Below, one piece after another: positions 6,000 through 50,228 of a stretch of DNA of 64,000 nt (positions within the stretch are counted from its first letter, which is position 1; every line of letters begins with the position of its first letter). This DNA is from Escherichia phage vB_Eco_NR1. The notes under the pieces are model-generated. The model did not search any database and had not been told where the DNA came from. It saw nothing but the letters and a program-made list of their open reading frames with translations. The stretch is taken from the sequence record LR990704; one strand, written 5' to 3'. The translations under genes were made by a program, and so were the position numbers.

Positions 6000-6791
6000 T
6001 CACATATTGTGTATAAGCACTTCGGTCTGAAATGATGCACCCTTCTTTTGCTTCCTATACATGGTTTCAAAATATTCAATTTTGAAATTATTAGAAAGGG
6101 CCCAATCTTTTAAAATATAATTATTAATATCGTCTGATAGATTATTAGTGATAATAAATTTAGACTTCGATTGTTTAATTTTGTCTAATAATTCTAATTC
6201 ATCCTTTTCTTCCCAGCCTGAATATTTAAATTTAGTAGAAAGATACGGCGGGTCAATGAATAAATTTTTGTTTTCAAAATCCAAATCTCTGAATGATTTA
6301 TTACTAAATGTAAATCGGTGCTGTCTATTTTTAAATTCAGAAAATTTATCCTGCTGAGACTTATTAAAAGAAGTTCTGGAATACTTGGCTCTATTGGCGA
6401 AAGCCGCGTTATAATTCCCATTACTAGAAAATCGGATTAACGAACTGAATGAAAATAAATGTAGAACATAAAGATATAATCCGTTTTTGGTTTTATCGTA
6501 TTCTTTTGACAGATTATAAAAAGGTGCTGAATCTTTGTCATTCAAATTAAAATCTTCAATAATTTTAACTATATCATTAATTGAAGATGATTTCATCTTT
6601 TTATACATGTCTATAAGAGGAGTATTAATATCATTACATATAACATCTCTCTGACAATTCATAGAAAATCCAAGACCACCACAAAAAGCATCCAAAACAG
6701 GCTTATCGTCAAAGCGGTTTGAAAATTGTCTAATAAATGGCATATACTTATGTTTTGCACCTGGATATGTTATGGCAGGTAGGTCTTTCAT
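6000..6791 (-). CDS. DNA N6-adenine methyltransferase, Dam family (divergent)
   Basis: 263 aa; motif I DAFCGGLGF and catalytic motif IV FIDPPYL in alpha-class order; N-terminal YPGAK and segment YVLHLFSFSSLIRFS resemble T4 Dam; very AT-rich coding sequence. Confidence 0.8.
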   Translation of the reverse strand: MKDLPAITYPGAKHKYMPFIRQFSNRFDDKPVLDAFCGGLGFSMNCQRDVICNDINTPLIDMYKKMKSSSINDIVKIIEDFNLNDKDSAPFYNLSKEYDKTKNGLYLYVLHLFSFSSLIRFSSNGNYNAAFANRAKYSRTSFNKSQQDKFSEFKNRQHRFTFSNKSFRDLDFENKNLFIDPPYLSTKFKYSGWEEKDELELLDKIKQSKSKFIITNNLSDDINNYILKDWALSNNFKIEYFETMYRKQKKGASFQTEVLIHNM

Positions 6792-43545: not shown

Positions 43546-44216
43546 GGAAGAGACAGAGGATCGCAATCTTCCTCTGATGGAGCATCTTCAAGACCCATAG
43601 CATATCGCAAAGCGTACTTCATCATCAGGATGTCTTTCGCACAGTCATGAATAGAATCATGTGCAACGAATCCATCTAAAGTTCCCTTTGGAAGAGGACA
43701 TGTGGTCATATCACGAACAAGCAAAAGTGCTTCAATTCTGGTACGAATATCACGCTGATTCCAGAATTTACACGGTTCTAACTTAAATGTGTCAAGCTCA
43801 TTCTCAGAAACACCATTAAGGCGTTGAATATCACGAATGAGATCGACTAAAATTGGAAAATCAAACGACATTCCACGGCACCAGCCTTGAGATTTCCAAG
43901 GATCGATATTATGTGCATTGATGTAATCATTAAATTTTGCAATACCATCGATAGTGCTTACATCTTCATCGGATGGTGCAATATTTTTTCGAGCTTCAGG
44001 AGATTGATTCTTCCACCATTCGATAGTGCTTTTAGTAAAAAGACGATGTCCTTTTTGGCTTTTTAAATCAAATTTGATTTTAATGCCACGTGAAACTAAT
44101 TCATCAAATGTTTCAACTACTTCTGGATTAGGGTCAAAGGCAATAACAGCCAAATCAATAACAGCTGCTTTTTCACCGCTTCCCATTGTTTCAAAATCTA
44201 TAATAAAATCAAACAT
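43533..44216 (-). CDS. dexA: exonuclease A (DexA, DEDDh 3-prime to 5-prime exonuclease)
   Basis: 227 aa as in T4 DexA; N-terminal FDFIIDFETMG acidic exonuclease motif. Confidence 0.9.
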   Translation of the reverse strand: MFDFIIDFETMGSGEKAAVIDLAVIAFDPNPEVVETFDELVSRGIKIKFDLKSQKGHRLFTKSTIEWWKNQSPEARKNIAPSDEDVSTIDGIAKFNDYINAHNIDPWKSQGWCRGMSFDFPILVDLIRDIQRLNGVSENELDTFKLEPCKFWNQRDIRTRIEALLLVRDMTTCPLPKGTLDGFVAHDSIHDCAKDILMMKYALRYAMGLEDAPSEEDCDPLSLPTKR

Positions 44217-44473
44217 TAAATTTTCCTCGCTAAATCACGAATTTGACCTACAGTATAGTCTTGAATATAAACTTTATTGATAGGCTCATCAATAAATTTT
44301 GCCATAGATTCAATGTCTTTTTGTATTTCTTCAAGACTGTATACTATCTTTAAAGCTTTTTCGCGAATAGTAACATTATCAGGTCCTGGATTTTCTTCAA
44401 TGACAGCTTTAACATTTGTCATAAGAGATTTAAACTGGTACCAACTCAACTCAATCATTAATAATCGCCTCAT
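44216..44473 (-). CDS. hypothetical protein (85 aa)
   Basis: ORF track. Confidence 0.55.
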   Translation of the reverse strand: MRRLLMIELSWYQFKSLMTNVKAVIEENPGPDNVTIREKALKIVYSLEEIQKDIESMAKFIDEPINKVYIQDYTVGQIRDLARKI

Positions 44474-44711
44474 AAAGATAGCTAATTTCGCCTAAAACGT
44501 AATCATTGATTGTAACAGTTTTCACTTCACCGCAAAAGAATTCTAACGCAATTAAATCTCGTTCAATTTCTTCTAATTGAAGCATCAACTTATTAGATTC
44601 AATTTTTACAGTTTCACGATTTTTACCATGAGCAATTTCATAAATTTCGCTCACTTTATCTTGAAGCAGATAAAACTGATCTTTAGTTATTTCCACGAAT
44701 AGCTTCCTCAA
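44451..44711 (-). CDS. hypothetical protein (86 aa)
   Basis: ORF track; start may be downstream of listed one. Confidence 0.55.
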   Translation of the reverse strand: MRKLFVEITKDQFYLLQDKVSEIYEIAHGKNRETVKIESNKLMLQLEEIERDLIALEFFCGEVKTVTINDYVLGEISYLYEAIIND

Positions 44712-44943
44712 ATTTAATTAGTAATTTACAGACACTTTCATCTAGTGTAATTACCGTATCTGTATTACTGTGATATGATTGTTTTTCAATTCGTTTAATT
44801 GCTAATATAGTATCACTTATAAGATAAAGCTTATGAAGGAGCTCAGCTCCTGTTACCATAACATCGAGATTATCTTGCTTATTAGTATGCTTCCTTATAC
44901 CATCTATTAGACGATTTAAATATTTTGAATTGATGTTAATCAT
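44683..44943 (-). CDS. hypothetical protein (86 aa)
   Basis: ORF track. Confidence 0.55.
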   Translation of the reverse strand: MININSKYLNRLIDGIRKHTNKQDNLDVMVTGAELLHKLYLISDTILAIKRIEKQSYHSNTDTVITLDESVCKLLIKFEEAIRGNN

Positions 44944-44949
44944 ATAGCC

Positions 44950-46269
44950 TCACACATAAAATACATCATAACGACCACGAGTTACACCAACATAAAGAAG
45001 TTGTTGGGCCAATTCAGCATCTGCATAATGAATACAAGGCGTATAAATGAAAGCACGGTCTACAGACATGCCCTGCGCTTTATGGAATGTTGATGCAGGA
45101 AGTGCTTTCACTTTACTAAACTGTGATTTAGCATCCCAAAAATCACTCCACGGAGCTTTTCCGCCTTTATTCCAATTTTTATAAGTTTCTGCAGTTTTAC
45201 CTAAAAATAGGTTAAACTTATACAATTCTTCATCAGATGAAATTATTTTAATCTTTTCACGATAATATTCATCATCGCCGTAAGTTTCTACTGTTAAATC
45301 CCAATGACGAATTAGATATTCCCCAGGAACACCACGAGCTTTAACAAACGTTGATGTATACTCTGCTTCTATAATACGAACTAATTGTCCGTTATTAAAA
45401 ATAATTTCTGATACAGGCTTTCCATCAATTTTATATGTTTTAATTAATGGTTCCTGCATTACAATAATTTCACCGACAATAAAATCTTTATCAGTTTCAA
45501 AAATCTTTTTACGAATAATGCTATTTAACTTGTCAACAGATTTATTCGTAAATGCCATTACACGATTTTCAAACAAATCATCTAGTGATTTGACGATTGA
45601 AAAATAATTTACCATAAAATCGCGTAAAGCGGTATCACCAGTAAATCCACGTACTCCATGCCCGTCAACAACTTTATCATAAATCCACTTACCGTTACGA
45701 ACGTCAGTAGCTACATCAATAATAGGAGCATTACTGCGTTTAACTTCAGTAAGTTCACACTGATAAAAATCTTTGTGTGTAAAAAATGGACTGATATAAG
45801 CAGTATTTTCTCCTGGATCAACAGGTCTAATTTGCTTATTATCACCTATTCCAATTATAGTACACCAAGGTGGAATAGTTGAAAGCAGAATTTTAAATAG
45901 CTTTCTATCATACATTGACACTTCGTCGCAGATTAATACCCTGCATTTAGCTAAATCTGGTACTTCCTTCTGCTCAAAAAGAACATTTTCTTCATATGTT
46001 ACTGGGTTAATTTTAAGAATACTATGAATAGTACTTGCTTCTTTCCCTGATAGTTTTGAAAGAATCTTTTTAGCTGCATGAGTAGGAGCTGCTAAAATAA
46101 TACCAGTTTCGCCTGTTGATATTAAAGCTTCAATGATGAACTTAGTAAGAGTAGTCTTACCGGTACCGGCAGGTCCATTAATAGTTACATGGTGTTTCTT
46201 TTCTTTAATAGCCTTCATAACAGTGTTAAAGGCATTTTTCTGGCCTTCTGTCAAATCATCAAATGTCAT
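44950..46269 (-). CDS. dda: Dda DNA helicase (SF1B)
   Basis: 439 aa as in T4 Dda; Walker A GPAGTGKTT, Walker B LICDEVSM. Confidence 0.95.
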   Translation of the reverse strand: MTFDDLTEGQKNAFNTVMKAIKEKKHHVTINGPAGTGKTTLTKFIIEALISTGETGIILAAPTHAAKKILSKLSGKEASTIHSILKINPVTYEENVLFEQKEVPDLAKCRVLICDEVSMYDRKLFKILLSTIPPWCTIIGIGDNKQIRPVDPGENTAYISPFFTHKDFYQCELTEVKRSNAPIIDVATDVRNGKWIYDKVVDGHGVRGFTGDTALRDFMVNYFSIVKSLDDLFENRVMAFTNKSVDKLNSIIRKKIFETDKDFIVGEIIVMQEPLIKTYKIDGKPVSEIIFNNGQLVRIIEAEYTSTFVKARGVPGEYLIRHWDLTVETYGDDEYYREKIKIISSDEELYKFNLFLGKTAETYKNWNKGGKAPWSDFWDAKSQFSKVKALPASTFHKAQGMSVDRAFIYTPCIHYADAELAQQLLYVGVTRGRYDVFYV

Positions 46270-46577
46270 CGGAAAGTCCCTGCAATTGGAATACTAACAA
46301 TACGCCCAGTATCTAAAATTCGTTGATATAATCTTCGTGTATCTACGTCAGGCTTAACATGTTTAACTTCTATTTTATTAAACCAAAACTTGCGTGGAGT
46401 CTCAACTAGTCTTGGAATTCCCATACCTAAAGCTAGTTTATATTGGTCTTTGAGAGTAGTAAAAACTCTATCAGCAATCTCTCTTTCAAAAAACACAGCA
46501 GGACGATGTTCATCAAGTGGAACTGGCGCCGTAAATCCGTCTTTGTCTCGGTAAACTATCGCATATACATAAACCAT
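46266..46577 (-). CDS. hypothetical protein (103 aa)
   Basis: ORF track; ATGA-type overlap with dda. Confidence 0.6.
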   Translation of the reverse strand: MVYVYAIVYRDKDGFTAPVPLDEHRPAVFFEREIADRVFTTLKDQYKLALGMGIPRLVETPRKFWFNKIEVKHVKPDVDTRRLYQRILDTGRIVSIPIAGTFR

Positions 46578-46578
46578 A

Positions 46579-47325
46579 TTATCCTCGGATAAGTTTAAAA
46601 ATTGAACAATTTAGCGGGTATCCTCTTTTCAGTTTAAGTTTATCAATAAAAGACAAGTTTTGATACCGCTCTACACCTTGAATAATTTTATCACACATAT
46701 CATATTGCATTTCTGCTTCTGACAACTTTTTCACAATTTTCCAATCCGAGCCTTTAAGAAGAACGTTCAGTTTAACAACTTCAGCGCCTTCTGCTATGCG
46801 AGAACCATCAATACGAGCTTTAAGTGCTATAATCCTTAGCTTAATGTCAGAGGTCTGTTTTGATTTAGAAAGCTTAGAAATGTGTTCAATTCGATTTTCA
46901 CGTTTTTTCTGTATAGCTTTAATTTGATTATAAGTCTTTTTGATTTTAGCCCATTTCTTTTCATCTAAATTTAGTTTATGAACTTTTTTCGCAGATGAAC
47001 GACCAATTCGCAAAGCAAACAAATCACGTTTTTCAATTAACTCCTCTAAAGTATAATCAGAACGAAATGTATTATACTTTTTCTTTACTGCAATAACATT
47101 CCCTTTAATGTATCCAACGTTATTATCAAAACGTTCTAATGATAATTTCTCTCCTTCAATACGATTATCAAAAGGTTCTCCTGAATAGGCACAAACTTTT
47201 TGATCTAAAATATTCTTAATGTAATTGAAGTCTAAGTTAAAATCTTTAGAACGTCTTTTTGCAGATGCCTGAGTGTGCTCTAAACGACGTTTAATTTTAC
47301 GAATTTGATTATTAGACAGCTTCAT
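46579..47325 (-). CDS. basic protein (248 aa) at the position of T4 srd; contains an HNH_3-like motif
   Basis: position between dda.1-like ORF and modA; segment KVCAYSGEPFDNRIEGEKLSLERFDNNVGYIKGNV resembles HNH_3/AP2-type endonuclease signature; Lys/Arg-rich. Confidence 0.5.
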   Translation of the reverse strand: MKLSNNQIRKIKRRLEHTQASAKRRSKDFNLDFNYIKNILDQKVCAYSGEPFDNRIEGEKLSLERFDNNVGYIKGNVIAVKKKYNTFRSDYTLEELIEKRDLFALRIGRSSAKKVHKLNLDEKKWAKIKKTYNQIKAIQKKRENRIEHISKLSKSKQTSDIKLRIIALKARIDGSRIAEGAEVVKLNVLLKGSDWKIVKKLSEAEMQYDMCDKIIQGVERYQNLSFIDKLKLKRGYPLNCSIFKLIRG

Positions 47326-47349
47326 ATTTTTCTCACATCTTACGGACGG

Positions 47350-47410
47350 TTAACTACTTATACTATAACATTTTTACTTTAACTTGTAAACAACTTTATG
47401 AAAAATGCTT
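47350..47410 (-). promoter_or_regulatory. early promoter upstream of srd-position ORF
   Basis: GTTTAC and TATAGTATAAG on minus strand. Confidence 0.5.
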
Positions 47411-47447
47411 TAAAACTTTCATGGTATAATGAATCTAAGTCCTTCCA

Positions 47448-48050
47448 TTATAGATTAAATCCTTCAAAATCAAGAGTATAGATAGTGTATGTTGAATACT
47501 TTTTGTATTCATATCTATCTGCAATTCTAAATACACTTCCAGCTGGTATCATTACTTCTTGTTCATCTGAAACTAATTCCATATTACGATAACGATGGCT
47601 ATCCGGAAACTTAAAGTTTGGATTGTATTCTTTACAGCGTAGAGCTTTTATAGCATACTCCTGGAAATTGAATACCATAGGAGCTTTGAATTCAAAAATA
47701 ACCTGTGTGTTATACTCTAAACCGGAAGCAAAATGTAGAGCTATATTTTTATCATATGAAGCTGATACGACTTTATCAAATGTAATAATATCAATTCCTT
47801 GATTTAACACCTGCTTAGTCTCGACTGGAACACCTCTCCAAAGAGGTTTATCGTTTGGAACCAAACGAGATTTGATTATTTCATTTAACCAAGTATGGTC
47901 ATCTGGCTTATTAGTAATACAATGAATTAAAAGTTCAATTTCAGATAAATTAAACCCTTCAGAAAGTAATTCTTCACGAATAGAAGCACGCACCGATGCA
48001 TCCATTGATTTTATTTTAAAATCTTTTAGTTGCATTACTGAGTATTTCAT
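47448..48050 (-). CDS. modA: ADP-ribosyltransferase ModA
   Basis: 200 aa as in T4 ModA; R-S-EXE type signature (WRGVP, SAS, EQEVMIP). Confidence 0.85.
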   Translation of the reverse strand: MKYSVMQLKDFKIKSMDASVRASIREELLSEGFNLSEIELLIHCITNKPDDHTWLNEIIKSRLVPNDKPLWRGVPVETKQVLNQGIDIITFDKVVSASYDKNIALHFASGLEYNTQVIFEFKAPMVFNFQEYAIKALRCKEYNPNFKFPDSHRYRNMELVSDEQEVMIPAGSVFRIADRYEYKKYSTYTIYTLDFEGFNL

Positions 48051-48670
48051 TTAACTACCTCAATATCATAAACTTTAAATGTTCCAAATGAATCGTGTAA
48101 TTTTTCTTTTGAAATAGAAGTTATTTTATACTTTCCAATTGGAATCATCCATTCTTGTTCATGCACAATCATCATTAAGTTATCAGTACGCTCTGAATCT
48201 AACCCATCAGTATCTTCATATGTATACTTAAACTCAGTATTAGGAGAAGAAAGTATAATATCGCTGATATGGTCAGAGTAATTAAAAGCTTTATCAGTTT
48301 TTAAACGAAGTATTGTTTCAGTGAAATATTCAGCATAAGAAAAAGAACACGCTGTATGCAAACTAGTAGTAAATGAATCTACCCTGTTCGTTGAAAACAC
48401 TTCTCCAACCTGTAAATCTTTAATAAGTTCTTTTGTCGATTTTGATATACCACGATATAATTGATAAGGTGATTTAGTTAAATGCTTTTTAACGATTTTA
48501 TTCAACTGCCGATGAAGAGCTTCATTCTTTTTAGCTTCCATACATTGCCAAAGAACAGACTGCTCGAAGTCAGTAAATTTTTCACAGACTTTTTTATACA
48601 TATCATATTGAAAATCAACGCTTTCAGCTTTTATAGATAACTGTTCAACATCTGCAGGATTAATAATCAT
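48047..48670 (-). CDS. modB: ADP-ribosyltransferase ModB
   Basis: 207 aa as in T4 ModB; YRGIS, STN, EQEWMIP motifs; ATGA-type overlap with modA. Confidence 0.85.
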   Translation of the reverse strand: MIINPADVEQLSIKAESVDFQYDMYKKVCEKFTDFEQSVLWQCMEAKKNEALHRQLNKIVKKHLTKSPYQLYRGISKSTKELIKDLQVGEVFSTNRVDSFTTSLHTACSFSYAEYFTETILRLKTDKAFNYSDHISDIILSSPNTEFKYTYEDTDGLDSERTDNLMMIVHEQEWMIPIGKYKITSISKEKLHDSFGTFKVYDIEVVK

Positions 48671-48689
48671 GATAGCCTCCGTATACTTC

Positions 48690-48745
48690 AGAAGCTATCA
48701 TATCATCGTTAGAAAGGAAAGTAAACAACTTTTTGAATTATTTTG
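48690..48745 (-). promoter_or_regulatory. early promoter for modB-modA
   Basis: GTTTAC, 18 nt, TATGAT. Confidence 0.5.
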
Positions 48746-48920
48746 CCCAGGGAGCCCAAGGCGGAGGGTCAAGATGGTATGAAGCTAGTTCTTCTAGAAG
48801 AGCATCTGGGGCTTCAATTCCATAATTCTGTAATACTATACGGTACTCTTTCTTATAATCACTAGAATCATTCTGGATATTCGTAGAATGATTATCTTCT
48901 AACATCTCAAATAAATCCAT
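48738..48920 (-). CDS. hypothetical protein (60 aa)
   Basis: ORF track. Confidence 0.5.
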   Translation of the reverse strand: MDLFEMLEDNHSTNIQNDSSDYKKEYRIVLQNYGIEAPDALLEELASYHLDPPPWAPWAK

Positions 48921-48928
48921 ACTAATTC

Positions 48929-49399
48929 CTAGCGATAAAAACCAAATTTACGATTAGTTTCAATGATCTTTCTTTCTTCTTCGGACATTCTCCAGCGTAG
49001 TCCAACATCAAAATGAGCCCAGACCATCCTAACAAATGCATTTATATCTTTAATATCTTCAATAATGAATGTTTTACTTTTAGAAGGTTGACTCGCTAAT
49101 TTAACTTTATCGTCTTCAAACATGTCAAAAAGACCATATTCATGAGCTCTTTTATAGCCTTTAATAGTTAAAGCTTCAGAAGAAGAAAATGGTGAATCTG
49201 TATTCTGCAAAATATCTTCAGTATGCTTTATAATTAGAATAACATTTTCTGGATATTTTCTTTCTTTTATATCTTTAATTAAAATATCCGGATTTTCTGC
49301 TAAAGGAATAATTAACGAGCATTTTTTATCAAGTGTATTTACTGATTTACCTTCTTTAGACATAAATTCTATTGAATAATGTTTTGCTACTTCAATCAT
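48929..49399 (-). CDS. hypothetical protein (156 aa)
   Basis: ORF track. Confidence 0.6.
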
Positions 49400-49552
49400 G
49401 TGATTTCCTTTTGCCTACTAATGGACCATCAGGAATTTTGTTTTCCTGGATATATTTCTCATTTTCTTCCATCATTTTACTGCCAATTTTAAGAAGCAAA
49501 TCCAAGGCTTCATTTGCTTTAGCCTTTGCCTCTTCTAACGTCATATCTTTGG

Positions 49553-49756
49553 TCATGATTTATCACCATAGATGTCTCTCATCAATTTAAGCGCTGAGCG
49601 TTCTAATTTCTTTTCTTTCTCAGCACTAATCATTGATTTCATCCATTCTTCTGACTCGTTCTGTATTTCTTTATTTGCCTGTTCAACCCAACCATCATCA
49701 ATATACATTGAGTTTGGTCTATTGAACCATTCAAGAATCTTCTTGAGAGCTTTCAT
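49553..49756 (-). CDS. hypothetical protein (67 aa)
   Basis: ORF track. Confidence 0.5.
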
Positions 49757-50228
49757 TTATTTTACCTAAAACAATAGTAGGAGCATCGTCAAATTTATGA
49801 ATTTTTAGTAAATTTGGATTTAAATTATTCCATAAAGAGGTAATAAAATATGATAGCGCACTTTCGTCCGTAATTATAAATTTATTTCCTTTATCTATTT
49901 TCCAATCATATATTGAATCATATGAATAGAAGGATAACGGTTTATTATTATAATATGCTTCACTAACATCAATATAGTTAGATTTAGTAAATGCTTGAAT
50001 TGCCATAAATGGAGAATTTTGTACAGTTTCAATAATTCCGATCTTTTTAAGTTTTATTTCAACATCTTCTGGAATTGGCATTGAAATAAAATCTTCTACT
50101 AGATACATATTATTGTCATATCTTTTATCAATCATTACTGCTACGGTAATTGGAACATCCTTAACAAACGCCATACTAATACTATTGATAGACATTTCAA
50201 ATAAAATTGCTTCCATAATTTTCCTCAA
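49731..50228 (-). CDS. hypothetical protein (165 aa); position of T4 mrh
   Basis: ORF track; identity by position only. Confidence 0.55.

Follow-up and report, generated by a model that had tools for sequence, protein, structure and literature searches.

Srd, the phage activator of host RNase E, probably joins a PacI-like HNH-superfamily domain to a helical module specific to Straboviridae

The early phage gene srd and its function, activation of host RNase E, are already known. In the accounts of Qi et al. 2015 given by later papers (PMC7430671, PMC4980113, PMC13232886), Srd is described as a protein that binds RNase E at its catalytic N-terminal half and speeds the RNase E-dependent decay of host mRNAs. 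Very few other proteins are known that activate RNase E via this catalytic half. The effect is reportedly lost in RNase E-defective cells, from which it follows that any activity of Srd's own would be insufficient for mRNA decay, and Srd is said to stimulate 5'-end-dependent as well as direct-entry cleavage. Among nucleases, the closest described system is PacI, which has no catalytic His; a loop Tyr acts in its stead, and an Asp together with an Asn binds the single metal (PMC5714182, PMC4081073). The PacI group, group 20 of the His-Me fingers, is small, with 78 viral, 4 bacterial and 6 eukaryotic sequences; it is listed without a Pfam family, and Srd is unmentioned in that classification (PMC5714182). 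Recruitment of a His-Me finger for a non-nucleolytic role has a precedent in Smad MH1, which serves in DNA binding (PMC5714182), and HNH endonuclease genes have been reported in the DNA polymerase introns of the T7-like phages PhiI and W31 (PMC3428280).

The window examined here is a stretch of 64,000 nucleotides of Escherichia phage vB_Eco_NR1 (record LR990704). It contains the srd gene and, upstream of it, a promoter-like site:

46579..47325, minus strand: srd coding sequence, 248 codons, ATG start, TAA stop at 46581-46579 (open reading frame listing)
47362..47390, minus strand: sigma-70-type promoter-like site, candidate T4 early promoter for srd (consensus scan, 10/12)

The open reading frame at 46579-47325 is the T4 early gene srd. 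Its product is 99.6% identical to T4 Srd (AAD42557) over 248/248 amino acids and 100% identical to Srd of phage slur03 (tblastn), and it matches the profile phrog_1400, "Srd anti-sigma factor", over residues 4-248 with an E-value of 9e-108. The T4 protein (PHROG 1400) has the same length, neighbors and strand and differs in a single amino acid, Q151 where the protein of the window has K151; at the nucleotide level 17 of 747 positions differ. The preliminary description of this DNA had noted a basic protein of 248 amino acids in the position of T4 srd and had offered Srd itself as one of the options for its identity, and all of this is borne out: the protein encoded on the minus strand is basic (pI 10.0, 58 K+R against 30 D+E, 29.0 kDa, computed from the translation), and the genes for ModB, ModA, Dda.1 and Dda flank it. 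The order modB-modA-srd-dda.1-dda is the one found in T4 (AF158101), with srd on the same strand. In the distant Krischvirus RB49 the place of srd is kept (modB-srd-ORF-dda), and in Acinetobacter phage AM101 srd has the gene of a Dda-like helicase a few genes away. A tblastn search of 50,697 phage records gave matches to Srd in 1180, which cover at least 80% of its length in 1084 of them. We conclude that srd keeps its synteny throughout Straboviridae and that nearly all T4-like phages carry it. Within the window the family profile matches srd alone among 547 open reading frames, that is, Srd-domain paralogues were not found there, and an Rfam scan of positions 44000-50000 returned no match.

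The promoter-like site (47390-47362, TTTACA-17-TATAGT with the TG of an extended -10) is placed in the 122-nt spacer between modA and srd and would fit an early gene; such sites are as frequent in the region as in shuffled sequence, which makes this one weak evidence for an srd promoter. On the other side of the gene a single base separates the srd stop (46581-46579) from the dda.1 start (46577-46575), and dda.1 and the start of dda overlap by 4 bases (46266-46269). The tight packing of 46266-46581 suggests that srd, dda.1 and dda may be translationally coupled.

Inside the protein the following parts were distinguished:

46990..47325, minus strand: N-terminal domain, residues 1-112, predicted PacI-type His-Me finger (AlphaFold2 model, Foldseek, profiles)
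47095..47199, minus strand: segment quoted in the preliminary description, residues 43-77, KVCAYSGEPFDNRIEGEKLSLERFDNNVGYIKGNV (KVCAYSG...GYIKGNV; located in the translation)
47062..47145, minus strand: predicted beta-beta-alpha core, residues 61-88 (predicted secondary structure, alignments to PacI)
46972-47061: RpoD-like stretch, residues 89-118, the sole likeness to sigma-70, 30 residues
46582..46989, minus strand: C-terminal part, residues 113-248, Srd-specific (AlphaFold2 full-length model)

The segment at residues 43-77 is the core of a conserved domain of about 100 amino acids. Residues ~10-98 of Srd match phrog_3322 "endonuclease" (E 1e-18), phrog_3118 "HNH endonuclease" (E 2e-16) and phrog_1035 "endonuclease VII" (E 2e-7), and all of 37 diverse family members match the same five PHROG families. 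When 16 Srd orthologues, down to 31% identity, were aligned, 29 positions of the N-terminal block were invariant, including C45, E64, R65, N68, G71, Y72, G75, N76, N85 and R88; of the family-invariant residues the segment itself contains C45, E64, R65, G71, Y72 and N76. An exhaustive HMMER search with this block against 1.84 billion cluster representatives (clusters at 50% identity) found 12,353 proteins at E<=1e-3, 850 of them at E<=1e-10. The likeness of the motif is far beyond chance, with endonuclease matches at 1e-18 and 2e-16 and these 12,353 clusters. A family of more than 12,000 clusters is nevertheless without a Pfam or NCBIfam model: the Pfam scan of Srd gave no HNH_3, AP2, NUMOD, other HNH, Endonuclease_7 or sigma-70 model at E<=10, no HNH family was matched at E<=10 by about 37 diverse family members, and the NCBIfam scan yielded nothing for Srd and no relevant model for the 37 diverse members. 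A word-indexed protein search with the N-terminal domain alone returned 4 matches only. Endonuclease VII was considered and rejected. The Q...CAYSG and GY..GN motifs seemed to mirror Endonuclease_7, but comparison of the family profile with T4 gp49 ruled the likeness out (hhalign probability 0.5%, no match to Pfam Endonuclease_7, PF02945), and the label of phrog_1035 is not backed by the gp49 comparison.

Members of the family have diverse architectures and names. Many carry two to four tandem copies of the domain, as seen in the HMMER matches. Among them are the long proteins P0046 (852 aa), P0100 (427 aa) and P0107 (458 aa), which have a Cys-rich CxxC...CxxC segment before each of their two to four copies and a W.MSLER motif in each; one of the three has a weak match to the Stc1 domain, and in appearance they are closer to proteins of eukaryotes or giant viruses than to those of phages. 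Two other members of ~200 amino acids, at 6001-6612 of LR756503 (a 735,411-bp uncultured phage) and at 6001-6591 of L007, have the domain in their C-terminal half and belong to very large phage genomes, with neighboring genes that match nothing in Pfam. Some members adjoin terminase or helicase genes. In Salmonella phage Vi06 (FR667955) a family ORF at 2378-2854 (flanks 2344-2886), with the motif AHLDRFDPKKGYIKGNVTWVSGRANRIK, is located inside DNA polymerase gene 5, whose annotation joins two pieces, and the stretch gives sub-threshold Rfam matches to group I introns (RF00028, 32 bits, E 3e-6). The ORF thus has the look of a homing endonuclease of the Arg/Tyr type encoded in an intron. GenBank labels of the relatives are mixed, and some Srd orthologues of Acinetobacter phages are already called "putative HNH endonuclease", that is, the HNH relationship of Srd is already visible in automated annotation; no paper discussing it came up in literature searches that combined Srd with HNH or PacI.

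Structure prediction points in the same direction as the profiles. AlphaFold2 modeled full-length Srd on the orthologue alignment with a pLDDT of 87, and residues 1-110 on the 37-sequence domain alignment with a pLDDT of 95.7. In the domain model helices 5-24 and 33-40 lead, strands 61-65 and 77-81 with helix 82-88 form the beta-beta-alpha core, predicted at pLDDT >90, and one helix, 93-109, trails it. Foldseek comparison of the domain model with the PDB placed the Gme HNH protein 4h9d (probability 0.97) and PacI 3ldy (probability 0.97, TM 0.59) at the top, followed by NmeCas9 HNH domains, all with weak E-values of 0.03-0.07; with the full-length model PacI reached a probability of 0.99 among otherwise generic coiled-coil matches. 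The 88 fold matches in BFVD (E<=1e-3) are phage proteins labeled "anti-sigma factor", "HNH endonuclease" or uncharacterized, and include a giant-virus "Restriction endonuclease HNH". A search of the PDB sequences with Srd as a single sequence returned nothing, and PacI was reached by the family profile only: the HMM of the 37-sequence alignment placed PacI first among all PDB sequences (E 0.0079) and 4h9d second (E 0.15). The E-value for PacI was 2.5e-4 with 206 domain copies and 2.4e-5 with the 156 copies that are less than 40% identical to Srd (both with a PDB-size Z), and hhalign aligned the family with PacI over 77 columns (probability 90.3%, E 1.5e-6), a link resting on one solved structure. 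The HMMER and hhalign alignments pair the residues as follows; conservation, where given, is that among 206 aligned domain copies:

Srd C45, PacI C63; conserved 100%
Srd S48, PacI C66
Srd E64, PacI D92, at the end of strand 1; D/E conserved 99.5%
Srd R65, PacI R93, at the end of strand 1; conserved 99.5% (205/206)
Srd G71-Y72, PacI G99-Y100, in the loop, Y100 being the catalytic Tyr of PacI; G71 conserved 98%, Y72 99.5% (205/206)
Srd N76, PacI N104, before strand 2; conserved 100%
Srd K81, PacI C109
Srd Y84, PacI C112
Srd N85, PacI N113, in the helix; conserved 99%
Srd R88, PacI K116

From these alignments Srd appears to retain the complete PacI-type active-site set (E64, R65, Y72, N76 and N85), in which E64 and N85 align with the acidic residue and the helix Asn, D92 and N113, that form the metal-ligand pair of PacI. 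The catalytic His expected at the end of strand 1 is absent in Srd, where the position is taken by R65, and Arg is found there in 199/199 motif instances from the Srd homologues and the 150 matches listed. The missing His is a family trait and not a sign of decay, as it is absent throughout the family and also in PacI, an active enzyme. The zinc knuckle CxxC...CxxC is a different matter: it has been lost in Srd and in its close relatives, with C45 alone remaining and three of the four Cys of Srd replaced by S48, K81 and Y84. We consider it probable, at the level of confidence that we give to the reading as a whole, that residues ~1-112 of Srd adopt an HNH-superfamily (His-Me finger) fold which is closest to that of PacI.

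These comparisons also sort out what had been proposed for the segment before. The preliminary description had likened it to the HNH_3/AP2-type motif of phage homing endonucleases; PHROG, PDB-profile and fold comparisons all give a genuine HNH-superfamily signature, while the assignment to HNH_3/AP2 found no Pfam match and has to be given up. Clear full-length identity with T4 Srd is accompanied by silence of the HNH models in Pfam, but not in the PHROG, PDB-profile and fold comparisons. Of the catalytic His and Asn residues that were to be looked for, the Asn are kept as N76 and N85, and the His is R65, as Arg throughout the family. A degenerate or domesticated HNH endonuclease had been suggested as well; "domesticated" describes the protein best, and "degenerate" does not suit it, with the PacI active-site residues kept and invariant. 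The option that suits the results best is that the protein is both Srd and a carrier of a domesticated HNH domain.

Beyond this domain, residues ~113-248 make up a basic module, predicted to be helical, which no proteins other than the Srd orthologues of Straboviridae were found to have; these residues match phrog_1400 alone in the PHROG comparison, and the fold search with the full-length model gave no specific analogue for them, only generic coiled-coil matches at E>0.1. The full-length model has long helices at 122-153, 159-191 and 203-222, a conserved tail KLKRG.P, and a linker of low confidence at 111-117. Across orthologues, identity to the protein of the window is 16-65% in the C-terminal part and 52-98% in the N-terminal domain, so that the C-terminal part diverges much faster. 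In one orthologue, P0006, identity to the protein of the window stands at 98% over residues 10-100 and at only 59% over 113-248, which suggests that srd alleles may be mosaic, with recombination near the domain boundary.

Taken together, we propose, with a probability of about 75%, that Srd is a captured nuclease domain fused to an RNase E adaptor. An endonuclease domain which is widespread in phages, and in places resembles a homing endonuclease, would have been captured and joined to a helical adaptor peculiar to this lineage, and the fused gene would have become fixed between modA and dda as an early gene of host takeover. The conserved nuclease-like domain would most likely supply binding of nucleic acid, presumably RNA, and possibly phosphodiester chemistry, and the divergent, fast-evolving helical part may tune the contact with RNase E in adaptation to the host enzyme. 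This split of roles between the two domains is wholly inferred.

How far the domain still works as an enzyme is the point on which two of the alternatives differ. In the first of them Srd itself is a catalytically active, Tyr-dependent nuclease of the PacI type which contributes to host shut-off, for example by nicking RNA to leave 5'-monophosphate ends or by nicking host DNA. RNase E prefers 5'-monophosphate ends, and if Srd were a nuclease, its 5'-phosphate nicks could feed the 5'-end sensor of RNase E; alternatively, it could hold the RNA backbone in the catalytic half. The residues that correspond to the PacI site, E64 (PacI D92), R65, Y72, N76 and N85, are invariant in the orthologues and 99-100% conserved in the 206 copies, residues of a kind that is gone from inactive His-Me fingers, Smad MH1 and Enpp among them (PMC5714182). 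The N-terminal domain is also under much stronger constraint than the C-terminal part, and the relative inside a split DNA polymerase gene, in what is probably a group I intron, implies that there are active endonucleases in the family of the Srd domain. Against this, the N-terminal domain has 29 invariant positions, so the five catalytic ones are not decisive, the zinc knuckle is lost in Srd, the destabilization of mRNA reportedly needs RNase E, and the literature searched holds no report of nuclease activity of Srd. Within the overall reading we regard a chemically competent active site as about as likely as not, and a contribution of such an activity to host shut-off as possible but rather doubtful. 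The stronger forms of the proposal are somewhat less likely still: it seems unlikely that nuclease activity of Srd would be required for the decay of host mRNA, and equally so that Srd would be a working Tyr-dependent PacI-type nuclease whose active site is needed in host shut-off. If true, this would be the first RNA-directed use of a PacI-type active site and a relay from nuclease to nuclease in phage takeover.

The opposite alternative takes the HNH-like domain for a catalytically dead relic which serves only as a protein scaffold or as a surface for RNase E binding. It has in its favor that the canonical His is absent (R65), that 3/4 zinc ligands are lost and that the known function of Srd is activation of RNase E by protein-protein contact. 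However, a His which is absent across the family, active PacI included, is uninformative about decay in Srd, and the PacI-type catalytic set has been fully kept over deep divergence. We consider a dead relic improbable.

Most database records call Srd an anti-sigma factor, and in this interpretation it would act as such or as a decoy of sigma-70/sigma-S. Beside the historical name and annotation, the likeness behind it is that of Srd residues 89-118 to RpoD residues 569-598 in region 4.2, with 13/30 identical (BLASTP against E. coli RpoD, pairwise E 0.008), and the name "similarity with rpoD" probably goes back to this stretch. The likeness does not hold at the level of profiles or folds: no sigma-70 region was matched in Pfam at E<=10, profile comparison with RpoD by hhalign gave a probability of 0.3%, sigma factors are absent from the fold matches, and the stretch is the helix which follows the beta-beta-alpha core in a domain common to thousands of unrelated phage proteins. 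The label is without profile support, and we consider an anti-sigma role very improbable. In unrelated phages (Pseudomonas, Synechococcus, Alteromonas) the label has been copied onto short proteins which have only the nuclease-like domain and no C-terminal module, for example at 2444-2815 of Pseudomonas phage UAVern. So widely spread a label misleads, as it marks phage proteins that share the nuclease domain alone.

Finally, the idea that the gene encodes a mobile, free-standing homing endonuclease of the HNH_3/AP2 (I-HmuI-like) type which occupies the srd position by chance, to which the resemblance of the motif to phage endonucleases, the annotation of relatives as HNH endonucleases in GenBank and the one relative that interrupts a DNA polymerase gene lend some appeal, is largely refuted and scarcely credible, since the synteny of srd extends from T4 to RB49 and the gene is full-length in 1084/1180 records rather than sporadic, carries the Srd-specific C-terminal module, gives no HNH_3, AP2 or NUMOD match in Pfam at E<=10, and does not have I-HmuI among its PDB profile or fold matches.

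The proposal that Srd is a captured nuclease domain joined to an RNase E adaptor has practical value, as it gives a concrete, testable handle on RNase E activation together with a correction of misleading annotation. A PacI-type fold with an apparently intact site points to E64, R65, Y72 and N85 as residues for mutation, and the domain boundary at about residue 112 offers a clean split for binding work.

Compared with known systems, the N-terminal domain of Srd is most like PacI (3LDY/3M7K; group 20 of Jablonska et al. 2017). In both, leading helices precede a beta-beta-alpha core in which Asp/Glu-Arg ends strand 1, an invariant Gly-Tyr lies in the loop, an Asn stands before strand 2 and the helix holds an Asn followed by Lys/Arg. 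PacI is a homodimeric DNA restriction enzyme of 142 amino acids, whereas Srd has an additional helical module of 135 amino acids and its role with RNase E; PacI has two stabilizing Cys4 zinc sites, of which Srd keeps C45 only, and sequence identity between the two is about 13-17%. The Gme HNH nicking endonuclease (4H9D) and the HNH domains of Cas9 share the beta-beta-alpha-metal fold predicted for Srd, but their catalysis relies on the canonical His, a residue missing from Srd and from its entire family. Endonucleases of the Pfam HNH_3 (PF13392)/I-HmuI type are also phage-borne and broadly of the same superfamily fold; they differ from Srd in the absence of a profile match, in the motif, which is His-Asn-Asn in them and Arg...Tyr...Asn...Asn in Srd, and in the AP2-like three-stranded DNA-binding domain, which the Srd model does not have. 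In function Srd is comparable to RapZ, an adaptor which activates RNase E through its N-terminal domain (PMC7430671), by analogy only: the two showed no relationship in sequence or fold, and RapZ is cellular and sRNA-specific. As a His-Me finger in a role other than that of a plain nuclease Srd would stand beside Smad MH1, with the difference that Smad MH1 has lost its catalytic residues and Srd has kept them.
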